NCBI GenBank assembly: GCA_964658305.1
Contig: OZ210885.1
Location: forward strand, 4,278,001 to 4,342,000
DNA: 64,000 nt
DNA from: Leptogorgia sarmentosa
Lineage: Eukaryota
Direction of reading: 5' to 3'
Positions within the stretch are counted from its first letter, which is position 1. Each line of letters opens with the position of its first letter. Under the pieces are notes generated by a model. It did no database searches and was not told the origin of the DNA. It was given only the letters and a program-made list of their open reading frames with translations. Shown one piece after another: positions 32,340 to 50,681 of this stretch. A program made the translations under genes and the position numbers.

Positions 32340-33133
32340 ATGTTGTACGCAAGCGCTTACAGTAAAGCGAAGAAATTAGAGTATGAGCGAATCCGACGTG
32401 CAAAAAATCGTGTAGAGAAAAAAGAAGCACAGGTGCTAAAGCCGTGGCTTAAAAAGAAGTACACAGCAGTATATCAAGAGTTTATGAATTATTACACTAG
32501 ACTGCAAAAAGCTTACCCGACGGTGAAGAATTTGTCTGTAACACGGGAGTTTAAGAAGTTTATGGGTGTGTATTATAAAAAGACTTATATTTTTGTGTTT
32601 TAATTATGTTTTTTGTGTTTTAACAGAGGGAGACACGCTTCCAACACCACAAAACACAGGATATACGCCCGTACAGCTCTTTATACCAAGTTTGCCGATA
32701 TTGTCAGAAATGCCGAGTGTTACGGATGTGCTTCCCCTGTCGTCAAAAGACACCGCAGCAATAGTCGCCGCAGTTCCTTCTTTACCTGAAACGTCTAAAA
32801 CTGTATCTGAAACACCTATACTAGAGAGGCTACTTTCTCCGGACTACCAACCTTCACCACAGCCTGAAAGACAGCCTCCATCACCGACGACACCAGTTTA
32901 TGATCCATTATGGTCACCGTCTCCACCGCCACCATCCCCGGAGTCCAATTTACGCGAAGAAGTGGCTGAAATACTCACCGATTTATCGCAATCCTCGGTT
33001 CAGTCCGGAATGGATACCCCGCCATTTTATCCCGAGACGCTATGAAAGCTTTGACGTTACTCGGGACATAAGTGATTGGGATGATTTGTCCGATGTTATG
33101 AGTGAGGTATTGGACAGCTCAGACGATTTTTAA
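32340..33133 (+). CDS. Polinton accessory protein (basic helical N-terminus, Pro/Ser-rich and acidic tail), spliced
   Basis: A 61-bp GT-AG intron 32566-32626 joins ORFs 32340 and 32566 in frame (KKFM|EGDTLP); a possible frameshift near 33040 precedes the acidic tail. Confidence 0.65.
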
Positions 33134-33297
33134 AATTAGTGAATTTTTGTAGTAAATTTTTATACAGTTTTATTGTATTTTTAAAATAGAGTTTTTAAAA
33201 TAGAGTAGTAAATTTTTATACAGTTTGCTGTATTTTAAAGTAGAATTTTACAAAGTAATAAATTGTTTTTATAATAATTTTGTTTGTGAGTTATTTT

Positions 33298-33560
33298 AAA
33301 AAAGGGGGCGGGAACCAGTTATTAAAAAGGGGGTGGGAACTAGTTATTAAAAAAGGGGGTGGGAACCAGTTATTAAAAAGGGGGTGGGAACTAGTTATTA
33401 AAAAAGGGGGTGGGAACTAGTTATTTAAAAAAGGGGGTGGGAACTAGTTATTAAAAAGGGGGTGGGAACTAGTTATTAAAAAGGGGGCGGGAACCAGTTA
33501 TTAAAAAGGGGGTGGGAACTAGTTATTAAAAAGGGGGTGGGAATCAATTATTAAAAAGGG
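33298..33560. repeat. G-rich tandem array, about 10 x 25-26 bp (AAAAAGGGGGTGGGAACTAGTTATT)
   Basis: Read directly from the sequence, upstream of pPolB. Confidence 0.95.
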
Positions 33561-33742
33561 AATAAATTAAAATAACCTATGGTTATTTTACTGAAAGAAT
33601 ATTGAAGTGTGGTTATTTTACCGAAAGAATATTGAACCCATGGTTATTGAACCTATGGTTATCAAAGTGTGGTTATTTTACCGCACGTTTGTAAGTATAT
33701 AAGTGTTTGAGTTTTTTGCTGAAATTATTTTTATGAGCGAGT

Positions 33743-36700
33743 ATGGAGTGGCAGTGGGAAGACACAAATGATGTGTGGGTTTACGAAGTACCCGATCCAC
33801 AAACGGAGATGCAATATAGCGAGTGGGATTGGGGAGATACGAACGACTCATGGATTTGGGAAGTACCCGACCCAAGAACCATTTTAACAGATGAGAGTGT
33901 TCAGTATGGTGGAAAAAAGAGAAAGGCTAATGATGATGAAGTCAGCACCGGAGGAGTTTTATACAATTAAAGAGGTGCGACAGGTAAAGGCCAAAAAGTA
34001 TCGAACGACAGCTGTGGATTACACCGTACACTTTAATGATTTGGAGGATCTTGATCTTGTTCGCGAGTATGAACGTACTCAAGAAATTTTTGAGCACTTA
34101 CTAATTGATGTTACGGGCGGAATGGAAGAAACCGATATGATTCGATTTGTTTTACGTACAGATCAATTAGACAAACCCATATCCTTACCGTTTATGCCCG
34201 TTTCTCGGTTAACCCCAGAACGTGTTTTTTCACAAATCGAACGCATTGTACAATCCAAACAAGAGCTACGATTAAACGAGTCAGCTATTATTGATATTAT
34301 TCATGTTGAAATGCCGAATGGTAGCGGACGGAAAAAGCGAAATGCTCTTGATTTACAGAGTTATTTGCACAACAAGAGGTCAATGGTTGTTATTAAGAAC
34401 AAAGACAATCTGTGTTTAGCGCGTGCATTGGTTGTTGCTATAGCGAAAGTCGATAAAGATAGCAGGTACAAGTACTTGGTGGACTCGCGTAAATCAGCGC
34501 AGACAAAAGCGGCAAAGGAGTTACACGAAAAAGCGGGGGTTCCATTGGGATCATGTGGAATAGCCGAGGTGAAGCAGTTTCAAAAGTACCTTAATGAGTA
34601 TGAGATAAACATTGTTTCAATGGATGCAGGAAATACAATCATTTATCCTTCACAACCTATCGAAAGGGAGGTAAAACGTGTTTACCTATACCTACATAAT
34701 AACCACTACGATGTTATTACGTCAATGCCTGGATTTTTAAAACGAAGCTATTTTTGTCATATGTGTCGGAAGTCGTATGATCATACTGTGGATCATTTAT
34801 GCGATAGCCAATGCAAAATGTGTCGTGGGTTGAATTGTTTGTGGGGTGATTCAAGAGATTGTTTGGATTGCAATAGAATGTTTAAGAGCCAGACGTGCTA
34901 TGACCGTCATAAGGAACCTATTGGTGGTGGTCAGTCTGTGTGTCAACAAGTAAAGGGATGTCCAAGATGCGGAAAATCTCTAAGAGTTCATCACTTACAA
35001 AATCACTTATGTTTGCAAACAAAATGTAAAACGTGCGAGAAGATCATTGACGATAAAGATACACATTATTGCTACATGACAAAACCTGAAAAGAAAAAGG
35101 GAAGTGAGAAGGAAAGTTACGATCAACTGTTTTTCTTTGACTACGAGTGTCGCCAAGAGAATGGTGTTCATGAACCAAACCTATGTATAGTCCATAACGA
35201 GCAGGGAGACGAGTGGTGTTTTTCCGGAGAGAGTACAAACGAGGATTTTTGTGAGTGGTTATTTACAAAGGAGCATAGAAATTGTGTGTTTCTAGCCCAC
35301 AACTTTCAGGGGTATGACCGTTACTTTATTCAAAACTTTCTAAGTAAAAATGGAGTGAAATATGATGTTATTATGAGCGGAGCTAAAATTATAACCCTGA
35401 AAGTTCCGATGTTTAACATACGATTTATTGACTCGTTAAATTTTATTCCAATGGGTCTTGCTAAATTTCCAAAGACATTCGGGTTGGATGAGTTACATAA
35501 AGGATACTTTCCTCATTTGTTTAACAAGAGGGAGAATGAAAGCTACGTTGGTCCTATTCCGTGTGAACCATATTATAATCCGAATGAGATGAGTCCTGGA
35601 AATCGTAAAGCGTTTCAAAAATGGCATAAAGAGCAAAGAGACAATAATGTTGTGTTTGATTTTGAGAAAGAGATTATCAAGTATTGTAGATCTGATGTGG
35701 ATATTTTAAGACGAAGTTGTATGGAGTTTCGTGAACTGTTTAGAGATAGCACAGACATTGATCCGTTTGAAAAGTGTTTGACAATTGCTAGTGCTTGTCA
35801 ACTGGTTTACCGCACTAACTTTTTAAAGGAAAACACAATTGCTATTTTTGATTCCAAACGGGATTTGAAAGTAAAGCAATCCAACACAGCAATAAAGTGG
35901 TTATCGTACGTATCCGAAAAAGAGGGTATATGTATTGAACATGTGAGAAATGGAGGGGAGAGGCGTGATGGCAAGTACTCCTTTGATGGGTATCACGAGG
36001 AGTCAAACACAGTGTATGAGTTTCAAGGGTGTTTTTGGCATGGTGAGTAAAACTTTTTTTGTATACATAGAGGGGTTTGTATACTTAAATATCTTTTTGT
36101 TTTAGGGTGTTTAACATGTTACACACGCAATACCGTAAACCATATAAACGGGAAAACTATGGAAGATCTTTATGTTGAAACAAAAAAGAAAGTTCAATAC
36201 TTGAAGGAGGCAGGTTATAATATTGTGGAGAAGTGGGAGTGCGATCTAAAAAAGGAGCTGAATGAAAACAAGGAAATGCGACGTCATTTTGAAGAGCACA
36301 GTTTAGTGGATCCTCTACAACCTCGCGAAGCATTTTTTGGTGGGCGTACAAATGCGGTAAAGTTGTTTCACCGGTGTGAGAACGGAGAAAGAATAAAGTA
36401 CGTGGATTTTACGAGTTTGTATCCGTGGTGTAACAAGTCAACACGAATGGTTGTGGGACACCCTGAAATCATTACCGAAAACTTTGAGGACATTTCAACA
36501 TACTTTGGTCTTATAAAGTGTACAGTGTTACCACCTCGTGGGTTGTTCCACCCTGTTTTACCCTATCGCACCCCGGGTAAATTAACCTTCCCGTTATGTA
36601 AAGCGTGTGTTGATTCCACTAACCAAAACACTTGCACCCACACGGATTTGGAGAGAGCTATTCTCGGTACCTGGTGTCATATTGAGTTGTTAAAAGCGTT

Positions 36701-37719
36701 AGAAAAGGGATATCAAATTTTACAACTACACGAAGTATGGCATTTTCCAAAACAGTCCGAAGGGCTGTTTAAGGGGTATGTGGATACCTTCCTAAAAATA
36801 AAACAAGAGGCCAGTGGTTATCCAAAAGACTGTACAACACCGGAACAGAAGCGAGCATATATTGATGAATACTTGGAACACGAGGGGATTGCCTTGGATC
36901 CTGAGAAGATTGCACACAATCCTGGTTTAAGGGCCTTATCTAAACTTATGTTAAATTCATTTTGGGGTAAGTGCACCGCCCACCGCAGAACCCCCACTCT
37001 CTATACTATATTCACTATGATTTTCTATTTTAGGTAAATTTGGTCAGAGGGGAAATTTGGGTAAGACCGAAATGATAACAGAACCACAGAAGTACTTCGA
37101 TCTTTTGACCTCTGATGAGTTTGAAGTGACAAATACCCGTATAGTTAGTGATAACATGGTTGAAGTGCAATACAAAAGCGCTACCGATTTTGAAGAACCA
37201 AACAGCAAGGCAAATGTGGTTGTGGCAGCTTTTACTACAGCGTATGCCCGTTTGAAACTGTACGATTTATTGGACATGCTACAGGAACGTGTGCTTTATT
37301 ACGATACAGACTCGGTTATATACGTGTCAAAGCCTGATGAACCAGATCCCCCCTTGGGAAATTATCTTGGTGATTTGACTGATGAGTTGGATGGCGACCA
37401 TATCACTACGTTTATATCCGGGGGACCTAAGAACTATGCTTACCATACAGCCAATGGGAAGTCGGAGACAAAAGTGAGGGGAATTACCTTAAACCACACC
37501 ACACTGCAAAAGATAAATCCTGATGTTATCCGTTCACTTGTATACTTACATACAGAGTGTAACTCTCAAGCAAAAGTGACAATCGATATTCCGTTTAAAA
37601 TCACAAGGAACAGAAAAGAGAAAAACATAGTAACAAAGAGAATGAAAAAAGACTATCGAATTGTATATGATAAACGTGTTATTATTGACAATTATAGGAC
37701 GCTACCATACGGTTTTTAA
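33743..37719 (+). CDS. polB: Protein-primed family B DNA polymerase with Vsr-like insert; introns 36043-36105 and 36967-37033; probable N-terminal frameshift near 33948
   Basis: Exonuclease motifs FFDYEC, AHNFQGYD and YCRSDV; polymerase motifs YVDFTSLYP, KLMLNSFW|GKFGQ and YYDTDS; FQGCFWHG|CLTC is restored by splicing. Confidence 0.95.
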
Positions 37720-37763
37720 TGTAAATATATACAACATTTTTATTAAACATTGTTAAACAGTAT

Positions 37764-38126
37764 TTATTGTCTCTCTTTTGGTAACATATGACGATACTTA
37801 TCCGGACACTTTCCCCAAAAACCACCATCCTTTAGACTTGAATCCCCATACTTTGCGATTGTTCGTCTTAATTGTTCGCATTCAGGATGAGAGTTGACAC
37901 CCAGAGTGTAATAGTTTTCTTCCCAATGAATTTGCTCTCTCTTTATCATACGATGAAATAGTTGTGGTATGGAGTAAAAACCTTCAAAGAATCTATGTAT
38001 GTCATCATCTCCATTTACATAGTGCGTGTCTCCAGTTGTTTTGTTTGTGATAATAAAGTACATTCCATCACAGAAACACATCTTGTAAATGAGGTGAGTA
38101 AGGCAGCTCTCTCTCTTTATATACAC
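37764..38126 (-). CDS. Polinton hypothetical protein
   Basis: Open frame of about 105-120 aa, convergent with pPolB; no motif recognised. Confidence 0.5.
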   Translation of the reverse strand: MYIKRESCLTHLIYKMCFCDGMYFIITNKTTGDTHYVNGDDDIHRFFEGFYSIPQLFHRMIKREQIHWEENYYTLGVNSHPECEQLRRTIAKYGDSSLKDGGFWGKCPDKYRHMLPKERQ

Positions 38127-38251
38127 AATTTACATGCAGTTATTTTATGTGTGGTTATTTAACCTACACACAATTTACACACGGTTATTTTATGTGTGGT
38201 TAATCTTATATAAGGGTGTGATATTGATTACTTTTTCAGTATGTTTACAGT

Positions 38252-38800
38252 ATGGATGTAATAGTTGACGAGCTACGTAAGAGTGGTGTTGACATTGATA
38301 AAACAACACTATCTTATTTTATCAATAGGGCATATAATGATTATCAAACCGTGTATGAAAAGTTTTTAGATACGGTGTCCTATGAAGATTTATTTGTGGT
38401 ATGGAATCAACTACAACCCCGTTCCTTTGGTCATGTGATGGTTTTTTTGACAGTGGTACATTTACAAAATTTTACGGATCAGCAAAAGCGTGATGTGGTA
38501 CAACTTACAATCCCTGTATTGAAAAACATTGACATATCAAAGTACAAGAGAGAGAGGTCCGTTTTGGATAATTACACAGTGGCACGAAATATTATACACC
38601 GATTTTTACATCGTTATGTGTGTCGTCGCTTGGACCCTGTTTTTTGTCAGTGTTATGTTATTGCTAATGTTATTGGAGGATTAGCAAGACAATGGAGAGT
38701 GTGGGAGATAGCGCAGGGTGCTGTACGTTATTTGTACTATAAAATCCGGGTGCGTTATTTGTTCTATAAAATTCTACACTTTACCGGATTTGAAGTATAA
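38252..38800 (+). CDS. Putative viral Bcl-2-like protein
   Basis: Helical protein with BH1-like SFGHVMVFL. Its syntenic homologue at 58105-58478 reads INFGRAMAYL (compare NWGRIVAF). Confidence 0.5.
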   Translation: MDVIVDELRKSGVDIDKTTLSYFINRAYNDYQTVYEKFLDTVSYEDLFVVWNQLQPRSFGHVMVFLTVVHLQNFTDQQKRDVVQLTIPVLKNIDISKYKRERSVLDNYTVARNIIHRFLHRYVCRRLDPVFCQCYVIANVIGGLARQWRVWEIAQGAVRYLYYKIRVRYLFYKILHFTGFEV

Positions 38801-38814
38801 GACACTATACCGTG

Positions 38815-39435
38815 ATGGACGTAAGGTTTAAGTTACCTGCTAATTTTTACGTCTCGGGACAGAGTCAAAGTGGAAAATCGTTTTTTGTTCGTAAATTACT
38901 ACAACATTTAACATTGTTTAATCCTGTTCCTACAAAGATTATTTATTGCTATGGGGAGTATCAGAAAGAGTTTGCAGAATTGCAAAATGTGGAGTTGATC
39001 GAGGGATTTCCGTCAAATCTGAATGAGTTAACTCAAGGACATGACAATTCTCTTGTGGTATTGGATGATCTTATGGGGGAGTGTTCAAAAGATCATGTTT
39101 CCGACCTATTTACACGTGGATCTCATCATAAAGGCATTTCTGTACTATACCTTACACAGAACCTATTTCCTCTAGGAAAATTATCAAGAACCATTAGCTT
39201 AAATTGTCACTACATTATTGTCTTTAAAAATGCACGCGACTCTTTAGGGATTGCAACATTAGCTAAACAAATGTACCCGAGGCAAACTAACTACTTATTG
39301 GATTCCTTTCATGATGCCACAAAACAACCACATAGTTATTTACTTATTGATTGTCACCCTCAAACTCCTGAGAATTTACGATTACGTACCAACATTCTAC
39401 CTGGAGAAAGACAAATTGTGTATATAAAGAAGTGA
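38815..39435 (+). CDS. A32/FtsK-like genome packaging ATPase
   Basis: Walker A GQSQSGKS, Walker B VVLDD, FTRGSHH, LTQNLF and RTISLN. Confidence 0.93.
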   Translation: MDVRFKLPANFYVSGQSQSGKSFFVRKLLQHLTLFNPVPTKIIYCYGEYQKEFAELQNVELIEGFPSNLNELTQGHDNSLVVLDDLMGECSKDHVSDLFTRGSHHKGISVLYLTQNLFPLGKLSRTISLNCHYIIVFKNARDSLGIATLAKQMYPRQTNYLLDSFHDATKQPHSYLLIDCHPQTPENLRLRTNILPGERQIVYIKK

Positions 39436-39478
39436 AAACAAAGCTTGTATTCATTTGTGTAATGTGTTACGTACAATA

Positions 39479-40156
39479 ATGATATCAAGAAACATCACTG
39501 TATTTGTTACCGGTGGTACAAAAAAATTGACATTAAATGAACCTTTTTTAACACGAAATGATACAACAATACAGTTAAAACAGGCTACTGTTTTTTGGAA
39601 ATTCAAAAATGTTACATCTGCAAATAACAAATTTACAATTGATGGTGTGGAAAAAGAGATCGGTGTGGGATATTGGGATTTTGAACTTATTAAGGAGCGA
39701 TTAAAAGAGAGTAAAATTAATCTTACTGCTGTCATACCCAATAACACGTGCGACATTGAAAATAAAAACGGTAAAACCCTAAACTTAAAAAATCTTGGTC
39801 AACTAATTGGGTTTCCTGCTAACGAGAACATACCCCATGACACAGTCTTAAGATCACCAAATGCTGTTGACGTCAATCGTGGATTAAAATACCTAACAGT
39901 TACATGTGATCTTGCAAACCCGGAACGAAATGTTGACACGAATGGAAACACAAGTACAAACATTGCTTATCTACCCATCCCACCTGGTACACGTCTAAAT
40001 TCCTCTGTTTCCAGTTTTAACGAAAACCATCCAGTAGTTTCGCTTAAGGAAGACATTGTTACCGAAATGACATTTACCGTAACTCCAAACATTTCAAATG
40101 TTTCTGTGGATGTTGATGTGCTTCTTAATCTTGTTGTGAGTGGTATACATATGTAG
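39479..40156 (+). CDS. Putative minor capsid (penton-like) protein
   Basis: 225 aa, beta-rich; LGQLIGF...VDVNRGLKYLTVTCDL...IAYLPI resembles the LGF...D...l.v.cDiv pattern of Polinton pentons. Confidence 0.55.
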   Translation: MISRNITVFVTGGTKKLTLNEPFLTRNDTTIQLKQATVFWKFKNVTSANNKFTIDGVEKEIGVGYWDFELIKERLKESKINLTAVIPNNTCDIENKNGKTLNLKNLGQLIGFPANENIPHDTVLRSPNAVDVNRGLKYLTVTCDLANPERNVDTNGNTSTNIAYLPIPPGTRLNSSVSSFNENHPVVSLKEDIVTEMTFTVTPNISNVSVDVDVLLNLVVSGIHM

Positions 40157-40186
40157 TGCACGTAGCATATGTTACTCATTTATAGG

Positions 40187-40522
40187 ATGTCTTCGTATGT
40201 GAAAAGAACCCTACCGCTCCTTCAGACATTAGCAACATCAAAACCTGCACTGCGTAACGCCATCCTCCAGCACGCACCAAAGGATTTGATTAAAGCTATT
40301 TCTGAAATTATTTTAAACGTGCTTAAAGGGGCTATAAAAATATCCCCAAAACAAAAAAAGCGTCTAGCTCGTTACAAAAATCAACTACGCAGCCTTGCAA
40401 GTAACAGAGTAGCAGAGAAAGCAAAGAGAAGGTTTCTCACTCAAAAAGGTAGTGGGGGAGGTGCTGTCTTAGCGTCAGTACTTGTACCTTTAGCTATTGC
40501 AGCAATTACTGGTCGGGGATGA
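40187..40522 (+). CDS. Conserved small basic Polinton core protein (PW-like)
   Basis: AISEIILNVLKGAIKISPKQKKRLARYK...QKGSGG followed by a hydrophobic tail; a homologue lies at about 57070-57387. Confidence 0.8.
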   Translation: MSSYVKRTLPLLQTLATSKPALRNAILQHAPKDLIKAISEIILNVLKGAIKISPKQKKRLARYKNQLRSLASNRVAEKAKRRFLTQKGSGGGAVLASVLVPLAIAAITGRG

Positions 40523-41268
40523 AGCGTATGGTTTTGATTCCTGAAGAGAAACTTATTCAATATGAGCAACAAAAAGGGGGTGGAACACACCCGTATATAG
40601 ATATTACACCCTACACACCCTACACACCCTACACACCCAATACTGGACAGTATGGTTATGGGAAAAAAGAGGAGGAAAGGGAGTTATCAAATGATATTAT
40701 TGTTCGTGGAATTCCAAAGACTATGAAAAACAGAGCTACCGCCCTCTTAGAGCACCTAAAAACAAAACCTGATGCTATGGGACAAGTTACTATAAATGGA
40801 ACCCTCATACAAAAATCAAACATTTCGGATTTAGTTTCCAATGCTATGAGATCACGTAAAAACTTTAACCCTACAGGTTCAGAAGAGTTTTTTAGTGTGT
40901 TAAGTGACTTAAACGTGCCAAGAGATCTTGTAAGAAACGAGGGAAGCATGAATAATCGTAAACCAAAGCGAAAAGTCAACCAAAAGGGAGGAATTATAAG
41001 ATGGATGGATGATATGGCTGCAGGGATTGCCAAACTAGGGAAACCGGTTGTATACAAAGCAGCAGATTGGATGACAAAAAAGGAACTGGGTGAAGAAGGG
41101 TACAAAAAGTATAAAGCAAAAAGAGCGAAAAGAGAGAGAGCGAAAAGAGAGAAAGCAAGAAAAGCGAGAATAGCAAGAAGAGCAAGAATAGCGAGAGCAA
41201 AAAAACAAAAGGGTCGGGGAAAACAACAAGGGGAAAAAACACCTAAATGGGAGTGTTATAAAGGATAA
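40519..41268 (+). CDS. Conserved Polinton protein with Arg/Lys-rich C-terminus
   Basis: MKRMVLIP start (ATGA overlap), GQVTINGTLIQKSNISDLVS motif, homologue at 56631-57049, several QKGG motifs. Confidence 0.75.
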   Translation: MKRMVLIPEEKLIQYEQQKGGGTHPYIDITPYTPYTPYTPNTGQYGYGKKEEERELSNDIIVRGIPKTMKNRATALLEHLKTKPDAMGQVTINGTLIQKSNISDLVSNAMRSRKNFNPTGSEEFFSVLSDLNVPRDLVRNEGSMNNRKPKRKVNQKGGIIRWMDDMAAGIAKLGKPVVYKAADWMTKKELGEEGYKKYKAKRAKRERAKREKARKARIARRARIARAKKQKGRGKQQGEKTPKWECYKG

Positions 41269-41344
41269 CTTTTTTTTGTAAATAATTATTGTTGTTGTTG
41301 AAAAATGAATAAAACATTATTTGGAAAGTTGAATTTTTTATTTA

Positions 41345-41842
41345 AAGTAATCTTTTACAACATTGACTAAGTCCACAAATGGATTTGCTAGTAATATCAA
41401 AGTGTTTTTTAACATAACATTACGATCGTTAAACAAGGCATTATTTCCAAACATATTTACAATCTCACTCATATTACGTCCACAAGCTCTCTGATATAAG
41501 TAAAAAACACAATAGTGACCGCACACTTCAGTCCATGAACTTTGTAATTTTTTTTCGTGTATTATATTTCCATTCAACAGAATTAAAATAAGTTTTAAAA
41601 GATTTGTTATAATGTTCCGGGGGTTGTCCATAACTATCAAAAAATTCTCCAGTGTTGCGTGTGGGAAAGTAAAACACCACCCAATGTGTTCCAGGTTTTG
41701 TAGAGGGATCTGTATTAGCTACAAACCCACAAGGGAATGTGCTTAAGGATTTTGGTAACTGGTCGGCGGGAAACACACCACAAAATGTCTTTGATGTTTT
41801 TGAATTATGTTCCAAGGCACGTTCTATTTGTCGAGTATTCAT
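41345..41842 (-). pseudogene. Adenain-like cysteine protease, frameshifted
   Basis: NTDPSTKPGTHWVV, FFDSYG, then LQSSWTEVCGHYC in another frame. The shift falls in the A8 run at 41548-41555; a second probable shift lies near 41415. Confidence 0.9.
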
Positions 41843-43227
41843 GACGACATGTCATACATTACATTTCTGTCACCATCAATCTGTATAATATTTTCAAAAT
41901 CTCCGTAACACACAAGAGCAAGAGCTTCTGTTGGTGCTGTGGCAAATGTTATGTCAACTGTCAATGCACCGTGCTGTACAGCATTAAAATAGGGAGAAGA
42001 ACCACACATGTCGGGAGTTAAGTCAAAAGCATAGATGGTGTAACCTCTAGGATAATCTTCACGGGAAATATCAAGTCCTGTATTGTAATTCATTTTCCCT
42101 GTACCAGAGAACAAAGTACCATATGCCTGCATAAAATGCTCTTTATTATTTGTGTAATTCAAATTGAATTGTTTGAAAGGTAACTCCTCCCCATTTACTG
42201 TAAGTGTCACAGATGTTACACCATAATTTTTGAAATTAAATGGATTTGTTCCATAAGTTCCATTGAAAGCTGTGGCATCCACAAGACCAAAAACAAATGT
42301 TTTTGGTATTGTTCCTGTAAAAATGTTATCCTTCCTTATAGATGGAACATTTCCAGGTACAACAAATGATTTACACTCAACACGGCGTGTGGGGTAGATA
42401 GCAGGCATTCTTTTTAGTGCGGTTGTATGGGCTGCCTGAACAGCTTGACTCACACGAACTTTACGAACTTTAAGAATAACATCGGTCAACTTCACTTTGG
42501 CATTAATGGGGGTTGTGTTTTTATCTGTAAGACAAAATTGATCAGGGCTTCGGTTGAGAATCAATTTAACATTCACCCGATCCAACAAGAGACGATCGCT
42601 CATAAACGCATCAACAAAAACGGGTCCCTCCATTGTGAGAAGCTTTCCGTCACGTACAAGCTGATGTCTTTTAGCAAAACCTTGATTTCCGCTTCCTGGT
42701 GTCATAACTTTATGATCAGTACCCGATATGGTTAATGTTTTTTCTCCCGGAAGGCTTCCTGTATCATCCATTTTTCCCGGTGTGTCTTTGTAGTATAATG
42801 CAGACGTAAGCTGTGATTGTTTGGCGGTAACATCATAATTCAACAATGTTTCCAAATAGGCACGGTAAGGGTATGTTCCTATGGCAGGTGTTACTTGCTT
42901 TCCATTCATGTACACATCAACTTGTTTAAACATTGTGTGTAAAAAGTTGTTGACTGGGGCAATGTTTGATTGTGCTGCTCCATCCAAATCCGAGCCGTCA
43001 GCCTTTACCACTTTTCCCTCAACAACCAAAATTGTTTTAGATAAGTCAATATAGTCATCATCGCCCGTAACCAGAAATGTAATAGGACCGTCATCATTCT
43101 CAACACTTGAAAGGGGGTGGTACTCAATCCAACGACCTTTCTCCAAACTTGCTTGTGTAGGTGGAATGTTAAATAATTCAACCTCTGTTTTACCACAGCG
43201 TTTTGAGTTTTTGTGTACGTAATTCAT
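41839..43227 (-). CDS. Major capsid protein (double jelly-roll, PY)
   Basis: 462-aa intact frame: ELFNIPPTQ, NNFLHTMFKQVDVYMN, YPYRAYLETLLNY, NPFNF and YAFDLTPD. Confidence 0.95.
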   Translation of the reverse strand: MNYVHKNSKRCGKTEVELFNIPPTQASLEKGRWIEYHPLSSVENDDGPITFLVTGDDDYIDLSKTILVVEGKVVKADGSDLDGAAQSNIAPVNNFLHTMFKQVDVYMNGKQVTPAIGTYPYRAYLETLLNYDVTAKQSQLTSALYYKDTPGKMDDTGSLPGEKTLTISGTDHKVMTPGSGNQGFAKRHQLVRDGKLLTMEGPVFVDAFMSDRLLLDRVNVKLILNRSPDQFCLTDKNTTPINAKVKLTDVILKVRKVRVSQAVQAAHTTALKRMPAIYPTRRVECKSFVVPGNVPSIRKDNIFTGTIPKTFVFGLVDATAFNGTYGTNPFNFKNYGVTSVTLTVNGEELPFKQFNLNYTNNKEHFMQAYGTLFSGTGKMNYNTGLDISREDYPRGYTIYAFDLTPDMCGSSPYFNAVQHGALTVDITFATAPTEALALVCYGDFENIIQIDGDRNVMYDMSS

Positions 43228-43285
43228 TTTTGAGGACCTCCTCACTGATTCAATGTTAAACTAAATGTGAATACTCTTTCTTTAT

Positions 43286-43786
43286 TTAACCAAATATATC
43301 CTTTGCGGGTAAAGACTTTCTCTGTTTTGATCTCGGAAACACACCTTTACCATTTCTACGAACACCTTTTCTCTTTTTCCCACCCATTTGAAACATGGGG
43401 TCCAAATCACTCCAACTAGGTTCCCTCGCCTTACGTCCTTCGATAAAAAACCCACCCCCTTTTTGAGACTTTTTTGTTTTCTTTTTTGGTTTTTTCTTCT
43501 CTACCTTTGCACGTTTTGCTGGTTTGTCTTTCTCTTTTATAGCCTTTATAGTTCTTTTTCCCGCAAGATCTACTGATTGTATTGCAGCCTGTTTCCCACT
43601 TTCACGCGCTGCATTCTTCACGGATTTACCGTCAATTACACCAGCAACCATATTTTTTAACAACTCTCCACCCACTTCAACTCCAATCTTTCCTATTTCC
43701 CCCAAAACAGGTTTAAGTACATTTCCCACAGCTGAGACATTTTTACCACGAAATATACCCCCAACACCATATCCTGTTTGTGTCAT
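43286..43786 (-). CDS. Basic core/membrane-active Polinton protein
   Basis: QTGYGVGGIF, an amphipathic helix, a Lys-rich tail and a DIFG C-terminus; usual position upstream of MCP. Confidence 0.75.
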   Translation of the reverse strand: MTQTGYGVGGIFRGKNVSAVGNVLKPVLGEIGKIGVEVGGELLKNMVAGVIDGKSVKNAARESGKQAAIQSVDLAGKRTIKAIKEKDKPAKRAKVEKKKPKKKTKKSQKGGGFFIEGRKAREPSWSDLDPMFQMGGKKRKGVRRNGKGVFPRSKQRKSLPAKDIFG

Positions 43787-43788
43787 TT

Positions 43789-43911
43789 TTAAAAGTAACT
43801 TTTTTGTCGAAAGTGTAGTGTTATCGATGTATGTCCGTGCTCAAATGAAATACGTTCGTTTGTGCTACTCCTTAAAAGAACCTTCACCTCTTCAATAACA
43901 TAACATGACAT
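43789..43911 (-). pseudogene. Collapsed canonical minor capsid (penton, PX) gene, 40 codons
   Basis: MSCYV fused to IEEVKVLLRSSTNERISFEHGHTSITLHFRQKSYF*. These resemble the first and last motifs of a Polinton penton, located directly after the integrase. Confidence 0.65.
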
Positions 43912-43933
43912 AAATACACACACAATTTGCTTT

Positions 43934-45010
43934 TTAAATATTTTTTAATTGAGATGCAGGTATCCATGAATTAAATTTCGCTGGATATCCCAACCATTTT
44001 ACAAAGTATTGCTCATTTTTACCTCTACCTTTCTTTTCTAAAATCTCCTCTACCTCATACACATCATCCTCCTTAATAACTTTTTGTAACTCCTCATTGT
44101 AAAATGTACCATCAAGCTCTTCATGATCATAGTCTTTTAGTTTATACACAGGTGGATGTCGAGGTATTTGTTTACTCACAGTAAAAATTTCTTTTGAAAA
44201 GTTGGGGAGGTATCCCTTTTCAAATTTACGCTTCATTTTACTTATACGTACTTGATCACCTATAGAGAACTTATACTTTACCCTTTTCTTACGTGCTGGG
44301 TGATCACCGTATAGAGTGTGCCACACCTCCTGTTCATTTTGTACTGTAACATTCACAGGTTTTTTCTTAATACTACGATGTTTACTATGATTATAGGAGT
44401 ATGCTAATTTTTCCAACATATCAATATATCTACGTGTTTTCTTAGCTGTAAAAAAGCGCCACATTTTTGTTTTTAATGTACGAATAAGGCGCTCAACAAC
44501 CGATGCTTTTGTTTCATTATAAGTGTTATAAAGTTGAATGTCCTCCTTTTTCATTAGTGCTTTAAAGGGTTTATTGAAAAACTCTGTTCCCTGATCTGTT
44601 TGAATTTTTTGTGGTTTTCGTCCTGACTCCAAAATCACTTTAAAAGCCTCTACCAATGCAGCTCCTGTTTTAGTTTTTAGGGGTATAATCCACGCATATT
44701 TTGAAAACACATCAATGCATACAAGTAAATATCGGTATCCGTCATTTTCACCAGACAAAGGCTGCATATCGGCTAAATCCATTTGCCATAACTCGTCAAT
44801 ACCACCAACAATAACACGATTTCGTTTAAATCTACGACGTGCTGGTTTATGTAGTGTATAAGTATCTTGACTCATTAACCACTTTTTAATTTTACCGCGC
44901 GATATATCAAACTTCCCATCTTTCTTTACGTCATTGTATAAACGTTCCACCCCACCAAATCCCCCTGATCGTTTTGGGTTATAGTAAACACTAGATAAGT
45001 ATTCTTCCAT
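43934..45010 (-). CDS. int: Retroviral-like DDE integrase with C-terminal chromodomain
   Basis: WQMDLAD, QTDQGTEF and VVERLIRT; chromodomain YEVEEIL...YFVKWLGYPAKFNSWIP; intact. Confidence 0.97.
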   Translation of the reverse strand: MEEYLSSVYYNPKRSGGFGGVERLYNDVKKDGKFDISRGKIKKWLMSQDTYTLHKPARRRFKRNRVIVGGIDELWQMDLADMQPLSGENDGYRYLLVCIDVFSKYAWIIPLKTKTGAALVEAFKVILESGRKPQKIQTDQGTEFFNKPFKALMKKEDIQLYNTYNETKASVVERLIRTLKTKMWRFFTAKKTRRYIDMLEKLAYSYNHSKHRSIKKKPVNVTVQNEQEVWHTLYGDHPARKKRVKYKFSIGDQVRISKMKRKFEKGYLPNFSKEIFTVSKQIPRHPPVYKLKDYDHEELDGTFYNEELQKVIKEDDVYEVEEILEKKGRGKNEQYFVKWLGYPAKFNSWIPASQLKNI

Positions 45011-45041
45011 CCCCTTTTTAAAAGTGAGGGGGTATAGAATG

Positions 45042-45260
45042 TTAGTCCTCTTTTATGGTAAAGGGCTCCCCCTCCTCCTCAATTGTTGGTAACTTGGCAA
45101 CAGGTAAATACTTTTTTCTTGTTTTCCCATGATACTCAGTCTTAAGACAACCCTCAATATTTGTATCCCCACGACGCATAGTCACACCCAATTTACACAT
45201 TTGTTTTTTATCAATATCTTTATTTATACGCTTTTTTCTTTTACTATTAGCGCTACCCAT
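45042..45260 (-). CDS. Small basic protein with N-myristoylation-like start
   Basis: Begins MGSANSKRKKR (MGxxxS plus a basic patch). Confidence 0.5.
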   Translation of the reverse strand: MGSANSKRKKRINKDIDKKQMCKLGVTMRRGDTNIEGCLKTEYHGKTRKKYLPVAKLPTIEEEGEPFTIKED

Positions 45261-45310
45261 GTTTACGCTGTAAATAATTGTTATCATCTAAATGTAACTT
45301 TACATGCTTT

Positions 45311-46366
45311 TCACTTAAGTATTATCGTTCCAACGTAAGAACCAAGAAAATCTTGAAAGTCCATAATGTATCCATTTGTGTGTAATGCATTCCATATCTT
45401 CTCAACAATGGGTCTCTCTGTAATTATACCATATTTCTCAATCTCCTTTTTCATTACACTCATCTCAAACTCTGATAACTGTGCGCATAGTTTTGTGTAA
45501 AAATCCGAAGTTAAAAGATTAATGCGTCTTAAAGTGCGACCATAAAAAATATCGCGAAAGTCTAACTCAGTGTACAACATGTTTACCATATGAATATCGA
45601 GAAACAACTAAGATAGTTTATTCAGCTTTTACGGTTTTATTTGGAGGTCCAGAACCGCGCGGTCGTCCGCCTTTCACAACTTTATCACACCATGTGTCAT
45701 AATATTGATTGGTAAATCCATGTTTAAAGCAGGCATACCATATCCTCTCAATAATTCTTTTGTCTACGAACTCCATATAAATACCCCAGGCATTATCGGC
45801 CTCAAACTCACACAACTCTCTATTGGTTATGATGTCATTTTTACACAAATACTCAATAGGAATGCTTCCAAAAACTTTCTTAATATAGTCTGCCTGAGGT
45901 ATCTCAACGCGCATCACAATCTCTTCGTTCACGTAAAAATCCAGAATCGTCATTGTTGCTGCAATAAGGTAGAAATGATTTTTGTAATAAAGTTGCTTTG
46001 CTTTATATCAAAATTATTGTGGTTATTATATATGCAGTTTTAAAACTGGTAGTTAATTTACATGTTGTTATTTTATATGAGGTTTTAATACCTACGGTTA
46101 TACAGTTAATAGTGAACCACAAGTGTGTCAGGCCAAACACTAAAGGGTTGTCGAATGTATCCACATCTAAAACAACTATCCCAAATTCTTTTAACCATTA
46201 TTTTGTCCACATATATCGCATCCTCTGTCTCCTCATCGTAAATACAGTTCTCATCTAGCTCCTCATTTGGAATATTTTCACAAACTACGTTAGCAAAATT
46301 CACTCCACACATGTTGATACTTAATAAAATCTCCCCCTCTAGATAGAAGTCCAAATCAATTGTCAT
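45311..46366 (-). CDS. Three tandem small paralogous ORFs (45311-45607, 45618-45953, 46106-46366)
   Basis: Shared N-terminal LD[FI] and C-terminal VDKRIIERIWYACFKHGF / VDKIMVKRIWDSCFRCGY / TERPIVEKIWNALHTNGY. Confidence 0.7.
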
Positions 46367-46470
46367 CTTGACAGCTTATAGTAAAATGAATAGCTGTGCT
46401 AAATACAGACCCATATATATCATAAAACCCCTGTTTTTGTAACACTCTCTTTATTTACATTCCATACGTA

Positions 46471-48660
46471 ATGAAGAGAGGATATCCATATACAAGTGGT
46501 AACCTCAATTTTGGTTACGAATATGATTACAAACCAAAAACCTCTAAAAGTGGTGACGGTGGTGGTGGTGGGGGTGGTGATGGCACCCCGGGTCCGCGCG
46601 GGCCTACAGGACCTCAAGGACCTACAGGACCTAAAGGAGATAAGGGCGAAACGGGACACACCGGAAACGTAGGACCTCGTGGACCGCCTGGATCTAAAGG
46701 ACCTGTCGGGCCTAAAGGAGAAAAAGGAGATAAAGGGAATGATGGTATTCAGGGCCCTCCAGGCCCTACAGGACAGCAAGGACCTCGAGGAATACAGGGG
46801 CTAAGCGGAAACGACGGAGCCCGCGGGCGTGAGGGGCCTCAAGGACCTCGAGGGATTCCTGGTACGGCTGCCAACAAAGGAGATAAGGGAGACACCGGTG
46901 ATCAAGGACCCCCCGGATTGCAAGGAGCACAAGGACAGCGAGGACCCCCTGGACCTAATGGTGCTACGGGTTCACAAGGTCCTACAGGACCTAAAGGGAG
47001 TACGGGACAAACAGGTCCCCAAGGAAACCCAGGCCCCAAAGGAGCTAAAGGTGATCCTGGTCATACAGGAAACACAGGCCCTCGTGGTTTAACAGGTCCT
47101 GCTGGAAATACAGGCCCACAAGGTCCAATAGGTCCAAAAGGACCAAAAGGAGATAGAGGGGATAGAGGTCCCCCAGGAAGTGATGGTAATAACGGAGCTC
47201 AAGGCCCTCAGGGGCCTGCTGGACCTACAGGGCCTACAGGAAATCAGGGTCCTCAGGGATTACGTGGACATAAAGGTCCAAAAGGAGATCCGGGAAATCA
47301 AGGGCCTAAAGGAAATATAGGTCCTACAGGAAACACTGGAAACACAGGAGCTGAAGGTCCATCGGGACCTATGGGTCCAACAGGACCCACGGGAGCTCAA
47401 GGACCGCGTGGGATAAAAGGAACTAAAGGGGATAAAGGAGACAAAGGAGATAAAGGGGATACAGGTGTTTTTGACCCCACCACAAAAAAGCAGCTTATTT
47501 TAGTGAATAAAAACTTTCAAAACGTGACGTACCCCCCAGGCACTTTTCAATCCTTTGAGTTTGAAGATTCGGGTACAGAAGCACCCTGGAATAGTGGTTA
47601 TGGAACTAATCTCCAAGTATCAAAAAGTGCTACAACTGAAACTGTTCCAATTTTGGGTCCACGTGCTCCTATTGAAATAACCCAAGAGGTTAATACAAAG
47701 TATACGACAACAGAAATCTGGTTTTGTAATCTGTACAGTAATGCACAACCATTCGGAATGATATTTGCTACTGAGGATCCTAACAATAGTGCACTGAAAT
47801 CCATATCGACAAACATTGAAGATAGTGGAGGTCTGGCACAAAGCGCTCCCATGAAACATTTAGGAGCTGTGGTGGGGTACAATAATAAAACGTACAATTA
47901 CTATCTAGTATGGGTTTCAGCTAGTGTGAGTTTTAACAAAATTGAAGTTGGACTCGAATACTATAGTAACAAGTTAGCGGAGGGAAAAATGAGCCTAAAT
48001 GTTTACGGTGGATATACATTTGACAAAATATCCTTCAATCAGTACAACGAAGCAAATCTCACAAACAAACTCCACTTTCCCTATCACAAAGACTTTGAAA
48101 GACAAAAGGTTAGAGGTGTTATGGAGGGAAACACTCTTCTTACAGGATTCGAGCAGTCTGATGGAACTATTCTTGCAAATAACAATTTAAGAATATCTGA
48201 AGTAAACATACTACCTTATGCTCAATTACATATGGCAAAACTTACACTAAAATATGTCGAAAATACATTCGGTACTACTATAATGACCACCTCATATTAT
48301 ACATCACCCTCTCAATCAACTGGTGGGTGGTGTCACGCAAAAGAACCTGTCTCCGGATACCCCATGCCTACATATCCAATAGTGAGTGGGGACCCTTTAC
48401 GTATAACACTATTGACCCACACATTTGACACTGACAACACTATCAGTGCCGATTTTGAAGTAGAATTTCGTTTGACTCTACACTCAAACGCTACAACAAC
48501 AACATCCACACACTCCTTGGGTACAATAAAATACAAAGACAAGAAACAAACATCTGGTACTGCTGCCTACCCGTTAGTAGCGCCTGGAAAAAAATATCTC
48601 CTCAATCACATGTTTCTTTACACATACCATCAGGAGATCCTCCTATTGTTTACTCTTTAG
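46471..48660 (+). CDS. Collagen-like fibre/spike protein, 729 aa
   Basis: Short N-terminal tail, Gly linker, 98 in-register X-Y triplets at 46582-47463 (all Gly-X-Y except one Ala), then a Thr/Tyr-rich C-terminal region of about 400 aa; single intronless frame. Confidence 0.9.
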   Translation: MKRGYPYTSGNLNFGYEYDYKPKTSKSGDGGGGGGGDGTPGPRGPTGPQGPTGPKGDKGETGHTGNVGPRGPPGSKGPVGPKGEKGDKGNDGIQGPPGPTGQQGPRGIQGLSGNDGARGREGPQGPRGIPGTAANKGDKGDTGDQGPPGLQGAQGQRGPPGPNGATGSQGPTGPKGSTGQTGPQGNPGPKGAKGDPGHTGNTGPRGLTGPAGNTGPQGPIGPKGPKGDRGDRGPPGSDGNNGAQGPQGPAGPTGPTGNQGPQGLRGHKGPKGDPGNQGPKGNIGPTGNTGNTGAEGPSGPMGPTGPTGAQGPRGIKGTKGDKGDKGDKGDTGVFDPTTKKQLILVNKNFQNVTYPPGTFQSFEFEDSGTEAPWNSGYGTNLQVSKSATTETVPILGPRAPIEITQEVNTKYTTTEIWFCNLYSNAQPFGMIFATEDPNNSALKSISTNIEDSGGLAQSAPMKHLGAVVGYNNKTYNYYLVWVSASVSFNKIEVGLEYYSNKLAEGKMSLNVYGGYTFDKISFNQYNEANLTNKLHFPYHKDFERQKVRGVMEGNTLLTGFEQSDGTILANNNLRISEVNILPYAQLHMAKLTLKYVENTFGTTIMTTSYYTSPSQSTGGWCHAKEPVSGYPMPTYPIVSGDPLRITLLTHTFDTDNTISADFEVEFRLTLHSNATTTTSTHSLGTIKYKDKKQTSGTAAYPLVAPGKKYLLNHMFLYTYHQEILLLFTL

Positions 48661-48950
48661 AATTTAAGCAAGTAAAACCCACAACAAAAATTGGTAATGA
48701 ATCTGTTCTAACATTCAATGCTGTACAAATACCAGATTTATCAGGAATTTAATAAAAATGTTTAAAAAACTTTAATGTGTGTTTACAATATTTTACAAAT
48801 GTTTAAAAAAGTGTACATCCGGGTCCAAGAATAAATTCAGGTCCAGAAACATATGTAGAAAAAAACGGTGGTGTTCTCCATACTTCACCAATTTTCAAAG
48901 GCTTAACAAAAAGCTTTTCAGGTATCACTACACAAATTGTAAAAAACGCT

Positions 48951-49724
48951 TTAAAATAGTGTCTTCCCATCCCTTGGTAAGGCTAGAGGGTTGCTATAAA
49001 TCTCCAAAATTGAATCCAGTTTGGTATTAGCTGCCGCAACATCTTGAGCTAAACTGTGTATATCTTCGGACATATCTTTCACTTTGTGGCAAACACGTCC
49101 CATTAACTTCAAAATTCGTATACCTATAGTTGAAGCTTCCCTTTCGCTACCACCTCTTGTTGTAGAAGTTTCCCCTGACGTCTGCGATGTGGTTGATTCA
49201 TCTGGTAACCCCTTTTTGGTCGCCTCAACTTTTTGTGTGATTGCACTTAATTGCTGTGTGATTGTGGCAATGCATGGTGGTGTATAGTGCATGTTATGCA
49301 TTAGACTTGTTAGGTAGGTTTTCAGCTCTGCTGGAACATTACTATAGCCCATGCTATGTTTCGCTATGGATGCAACCAGATCGCTGAGAATATGCTTTGT
49401 TTGACGGCTCCGTGAAAGTTTGAATGCTAACGTGCACTCCTTAACATCTTCAGGTATTTTGTCATCTTTAATCACCTTCTGTTTCACTCTTTTAATTCGG
49501 GAACGTAGTGGTGTTGCGGAGAAATTCTTACCATCGTCCCACCAGATATGTAAAGTAACATGTTTATGTATAATGTCACTATTTGGTTTGTAGGGTTCGT
49601 TCTTCATGGTTGCAACCCACCAATATTTATCACTCTTTTTTATCATGTAGGGTAGTATGCGTTCCCACATATATTCGCTCACGTTTACGACAACACATCG
49701 TGAAAAACTCATCGCGAGATACAT
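48951..49724 (-). CDS. Polinton hypothetical protein with C-terminal coiled coil
   Basis: 257-aa open frame; the ATG directly follows an acceptor-like TTTCATTTTACAG. Confidence 0.6.
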   Translation of the reverse strand: MYLAMSFSRCVVVNVSEYMWERILPYMIKKSDKYWWVATMKNEPYKPNSDIIHKHVTLHIWWDDGKNFSATPLRSRIKRVKQKVIKDDKIPEDVKECTLAFKLSRSRQTKHILSDLVASIAKHSMGYSNVPAELKTYLTSLMHNMHYTPPCIATITQQLSAITQKVEATKKGLPDESTTSQTSGETSTTRGGSEREASTIGIRILKLMGRVCHKVKDMSEDIHSLAQDVAAANTKLDSILEIYSNPLALPRDGKTLF

Positions 49725-49782
49725 CTGTAAAATGAAACAAAACAACAATTTAGTAAAGCTTAAATACTTAAAACCCGTAGGT

Positions 49783-49915
49783 TAAATAACCGCAAGAAGA
49801 CTAACCGCACGCAAAATAACCGCAAAAACACTAACCGCACGCAAAATAACCGCAAGAACGCTAACCACACGCAAAATAACCGTAAGAACGCTAACCGCAC
49901 GCAAAATAACCGCAC
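49783..49915. repeat. Tandem repeat, about 4.5 x 30 bp, of TAACCGC motifs in a divergent promoter region
   Basis: AAATAACCGCAAGAACGCTAACCGCACGCA units followed by a TATA-like TATTTAA at about 49926. Confidence 0.85.
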
Positions 49916-49950
49916 GTACAAAGACTATTTAAGAGCGTGTATGCGAGTTG

Positions 49951-50490
49951 ATGCACAAAATGAATATTATCGGGATAATCGATTTAGATGGCTTTTGTAT
50001 ACAACAAACATTTTTCTGTCGCGAACTTGGACTCATAACCTATGGTGACACATATGGAACATCGTTTCACTTTAACACACCGTTAGAATATGGAAAATTA
50101 AGCGAAAAAGATAAAACACAAGTAAACTACGTGCAAGAATACATCCACGGTTTGTCGTTGGGGGATAATAAAGCTATGAATCAAAACATGGTAAACGTTA
50201 TTGTACAAAGATTTTACGATGCCTATCGTATGGATAGCAACAGTGCCATCGCCTACAAGGGGGGATCATTTGAAAAAACACTACTCGAAAAACTGAACAT
50301 ACCGTCATTCAACTTAGAGCTTATTGGCTGTCCAAAAGCTGAAAATATTTATCATGAAATGGCTTGGTTAGAGTGTTGTGGACAACACACACTCCTTAAA
50401 AACAAAAATGAAACTTACAAACACTGCCCTCGTGTTGAGGTAGAGGCATATCTGCACTGGTTCGAACAATATTGGATGTGGAAGTATTGA
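49951..50490 (+). CDS. DEDD-family 3'-5' exonuclease-like protein
   Basis: IIDLDGF...RELG, IHGL, YKGG..EK, NLE..GCP and C..H...HC pattern. Confidence 0.7.
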   Translation: MHKMNIIGIIDLDGFCIQQTFFCRELGLITYGDTYGTSFHFNTPLEYGKLSEKDKTQVNYVQEYIHGLSLGDNKAMNQNMVNVIVQRFYDAYRMDSNSAIAYKGGSFEKTLLEKLNIPSFNLELIGCPKAENIYHEMAWLECCGQHTLLKNKNETYKHCPRVEVEAYLHWFEQYWMWKY

Positions 50491-50608
50491 TAAAAATCGT
50501 CTGCAAACCAGAAAATTGCCTAAAAATACGGAAAAATGAAGACAAAAACATGTAAATAATCTTAAAAATCGCTATTAAAACACATTTTACTACTAATATT
50601 ATTGTGTA

Positions 50609-50681
50609 CCCTGGTTAGCTCAATTGGTAGAGCCTCGGATTGTAGCTCCGAAGGTTGTTGGTTCGAGTCCAGCCCTGGGGA
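50609..50681 (+). tRNA. tRNA-Tyr(GTA)-like gene, intronless, inside the Polinton
   Basis: 73-nt cloverleaf: acceptor CCCTGGT/CCTGGGG+A, D arm GCTC-AATTGGTA-GAGC, anticodon arm TCGGA-TTGTAGC-TCCGA, T arm GTTGG-TTCGAGT-CCAGC; intact A and B boxes. Confidence 0.88.

Follow-up and report, generated by a model that had tools for sequence, protein, structure and literature searches.

The Polinton/Maverick element described here lies in a window of 64,000 nucleotides, which is the whole stretch of Leptogorgia sarmentosa DNA that was analysed, and very probably represents a lineage that inherits two pentons together, one of which this copy has lost by a private deletion. The intact gene, ORF 39479, encodes a protein predicted to have a penton fold, while the ordinary penton, PX, survives as a short remnant. 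As a whole, the reading that this copy lost PX privately and that its lineage carries two pentons with divided labour at the vertices is a probable one. The sequence-only reading had seen in the same arrangement a replacement of the canonical penton.

The element (Table 1) carries the hallmarks of Polintons/Mavericks, namely terminal inverted repeats, AGTAGT...ACTACT ends and a 6-bp target-site duplication, CTACTC, which is perfect at 30853-30858 and 50991-50996. Within its 20,132 bp, Pfam recognises both a protein-primed PolB and an rve integrase with a chromodomain. PolB is made of three ORFs with two short GT...AG stretches between them, which are likely introns. The Polinton gene order, according to Barreat and Katzourakis, is atp, pm, pz; int, mcp, pw, Mcp, pro. 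By position, the gene after ORF 39479 is PM rather than PW, as it had first been labelled, and PW is the gene at 43286-43786. The likeness of PM to GasderminX, a name that comes from Buck et al. (PMC11071296), was judged by eye. Such elements also encode a packaging ATPase, a protease and a double-jelly-roll major capsid protein, and the candidates for the latter two were named here by position and likeness by eye. The major capsid ORF (41839..43227) had no match in Pfam, and searches returned no usable match for the C-terminal ~395 aa of the collagen-repeat protein. The protease is likewise broken in this copy, into two overlapping frames (41528-41842 and 41338-41631).

Table 1. Features of the element and of a neighbouring remnant, in positions of the window
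Feature	Position	Strand	Basis or remark
Whole Polinton/Maverick element (adintovirus-like)	30859..50990	.	20,132 bp; ends AGTAGT...ACTACT
Left terminal inverted repeat	30859..31041	+	183 nt; 95% complementary to 50808-50990
Right terminal inverted repeat	50808..50990	-	pairs with left repeat
Protein-primed PolB	33891..37719	+	Pfam DNA_pol_B_2 E 3.8e-25 and 3.1e-20
A32/FtsK-like packaging ATPase	38815..39435	+	position; weak Pox_A32 and AAA matches under the curated Pfam cut-off
Second penton-fold gene, ORF 39479	39479..40156	+	225 aa, intact; predicted single jelly roll with insertion domain
PM by position (GasderminX-like by eye)	40169..40522	+	gene after ORF 39479
PZ by position	40519..41268	+	gene order
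Adenain-like protease	41338..41842	-	position and by-eye likeness to Adenain; no Pfam match
Putative major capsid protein, 462 aa, open frame	41839..43227	-	position; by-eye likeness to Hexon entries
PW by position (Cupiennin-like by eye)	43286..43786	-	gene order
Remnant of ordinary PX penton	43789..43911	-	last 34 codons about 43789-43893
rve integrase with C-terminal chromodomain	43934..45010	-	Pfam rve E 1.4e-13, Chromo 5.1e-10
Collagen-repeat protein, 729 aa	46471..48660	+	Pfam Collagen E 3.6e-46; candidate fibre
Family-B Polinton remnant	56631..58359	-	ATPase, then PM-like gene after 34 bp

The sequence-only reading had described ORF 39479 as an intact, penton-like frame of 225 aa between the ATPase and the next gene, and had proposed comparing its fold with virophage pentons; both the frame and the likeness stand. 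The AlphaFold2 model (pLDDT 86, pTM 0.70) shows one jelly roll, with an insertion domain (about residues 42-134) between strands D and E, and all seven Foldseek matches in the PDB at E<=0.001 were virophage pentons (mavirus 9.5e-8, Sputnik 2.8e-4). The best match in the VIA fold search was PBCV-1 6ncl_a6 (Z 10.9, rmsd 3.0, 128 aligned), with the mavirus penton at Z 10.5 (6.2, 220) and Sputnik 3j26_N at Z 10.4 (6.0, 219), while the top non-viral row reached only Z 6.8.

When four copies of the protein were modelled together, they associated head to tail through a contact between two different faces, ring-like, with a score of 0.61 against 0.00 for the best of three controls, a result that concerns four copies and not five, lies outside the calibration of the tool and may reflect likeness to solved pentons. 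The runs agreed in at least 77% of contacts, with a partner pLDDT of at least 80. In the calibration, 21 of 30 solved homo-pairs but none of 23 monomers attained the mark, and further sets gave 17/29 for eukaryotic pairs, 7/16 for animal pairs and 0/30 for monomers. Interface residues showed no enrichment in conservation (12/51 conserved vs 59/225 overall, by hand count). The protein is predicted to associate with itself like the subunits of a penton ring, and it would probably be a vertex pentamer of the virion.

ORF 39479 belongs to a sizeable family, with 189 homologues at E<=0.001 and 314 clusters at 50% identity. Pairwise comparisons indicate constraint on the protein, pN (0.13-0.33) being lower than pS (0.53-0.78) in 6/6 cases. 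The order ATPase, second penton, PM, PZ is kept in relatives at 50% identity (synteny in L001-L003), and PM also follows the second penton in L001 and L002. A 422-aa protein of Paramuricea clavata, P0617, was checked as a possible fusion with the ATPase and is not one. Neither the sequence nor the alignment of ORF 39479 gave a usable sequence match in Pfam, PHROGs or PDB, and scans of viral contigs detected no relative, whether the query was ORF 39479, the PX alignment, the capsid protein or the ATPase. Leads from the Atlas, with a recognition value under the mark, were DUF5901 (17% of cluster members) and Sputnik V18/19 (44%).

The remnant of PX is the 40-codon ORF at 43789-43911 on the minus strand, which, as had been noted, directly follows the integrase. 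It had been taken to join a penton-like start to a penton-like end, of which only the end holds. In residues 7-40 it carries the C-terminus of a PX penton of ~250 aa (84-100% identical over the matched part in 17/17 matches), and by comparison with 88 close full-length PX relatives a median of 216 residues is absent ahead of the remnant. By contrast, MSCYV is not a PX start: the local alignment begins at residue 7 in 84/88 relatives and SCYV occurs in 0/88, whereas the N-terminal F-Y-[IV]-T-L-P-S motif, present in 86/88 close PX, is absent from the 40-codon ORF. The ATG of this ORF was probably contributed by the flanking DNA towards the integrase, and the deletion thus likely took the true 5′ end of PX too. 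In this copy, where no more than the remnant is left, PX is separated from the major capsid gene by one gene.

The junction of the deletion is at about 43896-43904. Other copies carry different DNA there in 3/4 runs, with loose ends behind 43895 in 3/4 runs and before 43905 in 2/4, and no contig bridging the junction was found among the 32 pieces listed. Full-length PX genes exist at 88-100% identity over the surviving 34-residue tail, and a full-length PX relative, P0125, has a predicted penton fold (pLDDT 87; mavirus penton E 2.8e-10). With full-length relatives on record and different DNA at this junction in other copies, the loss was likely confined to this copy. About 215 PX codons likely went missing in a deletion restricted to a decaying copy, and this is likely the ordinary decay of one copy. 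The fallback of the sequence-only reading, that this copy simply lost its main penton, is therefore the one that stands, while a replacement, which full pentons in sister copies were to speak against, does not.

A replacement would mean that the lineage gave up PX and retained ORF 39479 as its sole vertex protein. In this copy, ORF 39479 is indeed the only intact gene of the two and has a predicted penton fold, but full-length PX persists in close relatives, the copy is damaged elsewhere too, in its split protease, and the two families occur and diverge together, which makes a replacement very improbable. Coexistence was scored by contigs of identical length, a proxy, as long contigs can hold several elements: among the matches listed on contigs of at least 10 kb, 56 lengths are common to the second penton (166) and PX (187), far above chance by a shift control (mean 0.054, maximum 2). 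Among the matches listed, the 25 closest homologues of the second penton on contigs of at least 10 kb include 15 with a PX at the same length and 10 with none, some of which may truly be without PX. Across 30 one-to-one pairs of second penton and PX (identities 42-100%), distances are correlated with a Mantel r of 0.904, a value attained in 0/5000 permutations, although a correlation of the trees would also arise from shared host genomes. The trees have 13/27 splits in common (shuffled mean 0.15), and of 11 PX splits with strong support, only 4 are found again for the second penton. In the matched pairs, conservation of PX equals or exceeds that of the second penton (mean identity 0.74 vs 0.67), which also argues against its having been given up.

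Profile comparison shows the two pentons to be remote homologues. With a deep alignment, HHalign related the ORF 39479 family to PX with a probability of 97.3 (E 1.7e-11, 193 columns, 16% identity), whereas a shallow profile comparison was weak (probability 55.9). ORF 39479 lies outside the canonical PX subfamily: it lacks the N-terminal F-Y-[IV]-T-L-P-S motif/TLPS loop and is placed after the ATPase, not beside the integrase and PW. In a quick tree, which is unrooted and hence gives no order of events, the two sets are split by a long branch (SH-aLRT 99), partly by construction because the sets were gathered by similarity. A recent duplication of the element's own PX was considered as the source of ORF 39479 and is ruled out by the 16% identity and the long branch.

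One fold and remote homology would also suit two structural proteins that share mixed pentamers, or that are alternative versions of the penton in a tropism switch. In both families, the jelly rolls are less variable (0.72 and 0.77) than the insertion domains (0.61 and 0.71), which fits this possibility and is as expected of outward-facing parts. On the other hand, ORF 39479 is predicted to associate with itself without PX, and its 16% identity and missing N-terminal loop would make mixed rings less likely; we consider such arrangements improbable.

The family-B remnant in the same window offers a second arrangement. Its ATPase, 57% identical to that of the element (tblastn 58048-57428), was said to be about 35 bp from the next gene, and this is so: the stop (57424-57422) is followed by 34 bp and an ATG at 57387. 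No tblastn match to ORF 39479 was found there between the ATPase and the PM-like gene. This remnant manages without a second penton at that position. Of the earlier claim that the lineage acquired a second vertex protein, what remains is a second penton-fold protein of the lineage, absent at that position in the family-B remnant; the replacement of PX falls away.

The absence of the gene at that position in the close family B would also be compatible with a protein that has left the virion, as a free oligomer, a decoy or an assembly factor for the neighbouring packaging ATPase. So would its location in the PolB-ATPase module, on the strand opposite to the capsid module, and the lack of a loop nearly invariant in PX. 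Against such a role, the family keeps jelly roll and insertion domain at a steady length of about 215-240 aa down to 21-35% identity, and all of the closest structures are vertex proteins, so that we judge it still less probable than mixed or alternative pentons.

In the two-penton reading that we prefer, the lineage carries PX beside the integrase and a distant second penton right after the packaging ATPase, and both would be vertex proteins of the virion with divided labour. Separate homopentamers on different vertices would be the most likely form, as for P1 and P1v1 of PBCV-1, with the second penton at a vertex specialised for fibre attachment or genome passage. The sequence-only reading had suggested that a second vertex protein may be paired with the candidate collagen fibre. 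By this analogy, the second protein could mark a single unique vertex, although we hold this to be doubtful. Equally tentative is the broader proposal of a widespread, probably cnidarian, Polinton lineage in which an ATPase-linked second penton, co-inherited with PX across deep divergence, would build such a vertex as fibre anchor or genome gate. Little is known of Polinton particles, which are commonly depicted with a single penton. If true, the proposal would bring the capsid asymmetry of giant viruses to a 20-kb animal Polintovirus and provide a handle on particle attachment and DNA packaging. That well over a hundred clusters retain this second penton family next to the packaging ATPase points to specialised vertices, and the protein is small and testable in structural studies. 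Annotation with PX profiles alone can miss such pentons, hence elements called “penton-less” may not be so.

Among known systems, the virophage pentons (mavirus 6G41/6G42, Sputnik 3J26_N) have a jelly roll into which a domain is inserted between strands D and E, and that of mavirus is pentameric (PMC6048507). They share this architecture with ORF 39479 and are its top Foldseek matches; the differences are 7-9% identity, a smaller insertion domain and a different virus class. PBCV-1 likewise has two divergent pentons of one fold in one virus: P1 and P1v1, with ~10% identity, occupy 11 vertices and the unique spike-bearing vertex, respectively (PMC9617893). Two PBCV-1 capsid chains, which from their lengths we infer to be P1 and P1v1, rank 1 and 4 in the VIA fold search with ORF 39479. 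PBCV-1 is a giant virus in which P1v1 is much larger than P1, whereas here the second penton is the smaller one and the genome has 20 kb.

PX of Polintons/Mavericks is the penton (minor capsid protein), a single jelly roll encoded with one gene between it and the major capsid gene (Krupovic et al. 2014, PMC4028283), and the 40-codon remnant is PX itself. ORF 39479 shares with it the predicted single jelly roll penton fold and remote homology, but differs in its 16% identity, its lack of the TLPS motif and its place after the ATPase on the other strand, in addition to PX. Finally, Buck et al. 2024 (PMC11071296) describe duplicate pentons for a few adintoviruses, such as Adinto23690 (from a Porites coral) and Adinto18043, which likewise have two penton genes in one animal Polinton-like genome; five motifs of ORF 39479 had no penton match in a portion of the supplement text. 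As far as that portion goes, Penton1 and Penton2 of Adinto23690 stand in tandem between integrase and hexon, both with a PX-type start by eye, whereas the second penton described here represents another subfamily, in the ATPase module.

Among the genes of the Polinton/Maverick element are those for a protein-primed PolB and for an integrase that combines rve with a chromodomain. Its gene order is that of vertebrate Mavericks, in which two modules face each other (atp, pm, pz and int, mcp, pw, Mcp, pro), with the difference that one additional ORF, ORF 39479, is located between atp and pm (PMC8097293, available parts). The PolB gene is broken by two short GT...AG stretches in good splice-site context, which are likely to be spliceosomal introns; intact vertebrate Mavericks were reported to be intronless (PMC8097293).

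Features of the Polinton element and of neighbouring remnants in the window
Feature	Positions	Strand	Remarks
Third Polinton remnant	964-2137	+	Fragments of capsid (42%) and protease (58%)
Region adjoining third remnant	2066-2593		Recurs at 58439-58939 beside family-B remnant
Polinton/Maverick element	30859-50990		183-nt inverted repeats at both ends; AGTAGT...ACTACT termini; perfect 6-bp target duplication
25-bp G-rich repeat	33296-33560		Ten copies, upstream of PolB gene
15/30-bp repeats	33574-33683; 49784-49916
GT...AG stretches in PolB gene	36040-36110; 36960-37040		63 and 67 nt
Helical-looking ORF	38252-38800	+	Just upstream of ATPase
ORF 39479 (predicted second penton)	39479-40156	+	225 aa, after packaging ATPase
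40-codon ORF	43789-43911	-	After integrase
Three small tandem ORFs	45311-46366	-	92, 111, 86 aa; mutually similar, two 33% identical (E 3e-13)
Collagen protein N-terminus	46471-46540	+	Basic start and YPY motif
Family-B remnant	56631-58359	-	Second Polinton remnant
Helical-looking ORF	58105-58359	-	Just upstream of family-B ATPase

Of 353 candidates, 189 are homologous to ORF 39479 at E<=0.001 (44-99% identity among the 120 matches listed), and a profile search with its family retrieved 314 clusters at 50% identity. Full-length members keep a size of about 215-240 residues and, between ORF 39479 and relatives on three metagenome contigs (L001-L003), 0.13-0.33 of non-synonymous sites differ versus 0.53-0.78 of synonymous sites in all six pairs. 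The AlphaFold2 model (107 sequences, pLDDT 86) matched only virophage pentons in the PDB at E<=0.001 (7/7), followed by adenovirus penton bases. A wide VIA structure search ranked PBCV-1 6ncl_a6 (Z 10.9, rmsd 3.0, 128 aligned), the mavirus penton (Z 10.5, rmsd 6.2, 220 aligned) and Sputnik 3j26_N (Z 10.4, rmsd 6.0, 219 aligned) first, tied within 1. Further matches, from BFVD, include adomavirus LO5, the penton of a MELD virus and minor capsid proteins of giant viruses. Prediction with four copies gave a head-to-tail association via two different faces, scoring 0.61 against 0.00 for the best of 3 controls, with at least 77% of contacts shared between runs and partner pLDDT of at least 80; the mark for self-association is reached by 21/30 solved homo-pairs and 0/23 monomers (animals 7/16), a two-copy calibration outside which the four-copy prediction falls, and the pass may reflect resemblance to solved pentons. 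ORF 39479 is thus predicted to have a penton fold and to self-associate in a ring-like manner. In the annotation of Paramuricea clavata, a distant homologue (P0617) is fused to a C-terminal part of unrelated sequence; the gene model may have joined it to a neighbouring fibre-like gene. This homologue and the Atlas label of the ORF 39479 cluster, in which the phylum is known for 3 members, suggest an animal host, probably a cnidarian.

The ordinary Polinton penton is PX, identified as such by Krupovic et al. (PMC4028283). The model of P0125, a natural full-length relative of the 40-codon ORF (pLDDT 87), finds its best matches in the pentons of mavirus (E 2.8e-10) and Sputnik, and its family is recognizable from this model as PX. 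Profile comparison of the ORF 39479 family with PX gave a probability of 97.3 at 16% identity (only 55.9 with a shallow alignment), and the two lie on opposite sides of a long branch; judged by sequence, they are remote homologues. The low identity and the long branch exclude that ORF 39479 is a recent copy of the element's own PX.

The sequence-only reading proposed that the canonical penton gene had collapsed into the 40-codon ORF, joining a penton-like start (MSCYV) to a penton-like end, and had apparently been replaced by ORF 39479, or else that this copy had simply lost its main penton. The ORF is present as described, and its longer relatives (17 proteins among 19 candidates) share 84-100% identity across 28-34 residues. 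In 84 of 88 close full-length relatives, residue 7 of the ORF is the first to align, and the relatives have a median of 216 residues ahead of the match; SCYV, from the proposed penton start, occurs in none, and the N-terminal F-Y-[IV]-T-L-P-S motif of 86/88 is missing from the ORF. Hence, the ORF is the tail of an ordinary ~250-aa penton, preceded by a few codons probably derived from flanking DNA.

When contigs from four public runs of two studies were aligned to 38200-45100, loose ends were found behind 43895 in 3/4 runs and before 43905 in 2/4, among the matches listed. Other copies thus match the window on either side of the junction, with different DNA between. Given these loose ends and the splitting of this copy's protease gene across two frames, the loss of PX most plausibly reflects decay of this single copy. 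In another copy (protein P0132, from a metagenome contig), a separate deletion has joined the PX tail to the PW-like gene, which shows that the PX-tail region breaks repeatedly.

Co-occurrence was scored on contigs of at least 10 kb with identical nucleotide length, a proxy, as one contig need not mean one element. Among the matches listed, the second penton was found on 166 distinct sizes and PX on 187, with 56 identical (20 in a smaller preceding count), against a mean of 0.054 and a maximum of 2 in a shifted-length control; at least 15/25 of the closest second-penton homologues on such contigs have PX at the identical size. For the 30 of 56 sizes with exactly one near-full-length member per family, identities (42-99% and 43-100%) co-varied with a Mantel r of 0.904 (0/5000 permutations as high), a correlation that shared host genomes could inflate. 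The trees have 13/27 splits in common, and strong splits recur in the other tree for 10/17 in the second penton and only 4/11 in PX. The metagenome contigs L001-L003 keep the local order at about 50% identity: in L003 the end of the ATPase gene precedes the second penton, and in L001 and L002 a PM-like and a PZ-like gene follow it. Replacement is therefore not borne out; the PX deletion is likely private to this copy, in a lineage that likely has two pentons. Since the family-B remnant (ATPase 57% identical) has no gene at that position, the second penton was gained or lost between the two lineages. The helical-looking ORFs upstream of both ATPases are homologous (29% identity) and may carry a Bcl-2-like motif.

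Duplicate pentons were reported in a few adintoviruses by Buck et al. (PMC11071296), whose coral adintovirus, compared by eye, has two PX-type pentons in tandem after the integrase; motifs of the ORF 39479 family had no penton match in the searched text of the supplements. The available text of a stony-coral polintovirus survey (PMC11131425) reports collagen-like proteins and mentions no second minor capsid gene. An ATPase-linked second penton is not described in the available text of 10.1101/697771, PMC8502044, PMC9952930, 10.64898/2026.10.13.758929, PMC6048507, 10.1101/2022.07.28.501842 or PMC8547959, nor was one found for Polintons in the open full-text literature; a description may exist in subscription journals, in Repbase or in supplements on bioRxiv.

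Two penton-related genes are maintained in one lineage, and both proteins would enter the virion as separate pentamers; mixed rings, alternative vertices using either penton, or a non-virion role of the second are also possible. Because the element encodes a collagen-repeat protein and the second penton adjoins the packaging ATPase, fibre anchoring or genome passage are natural candidate roles. The start of the collagen protein presumably resembles the adenovirus fibre tails that dock on penton. Collagen-repeat proteins of this kind were proposed as the fibre in Polinton-like viruses (PMC12220804, available parts). The closest solved precedent, as far as described in the available text of PMC9617893, is PBCV-1, in which two pentons of about 10% identity occupy the 11 common vertices and the single spike-bearing vertex, respectively.
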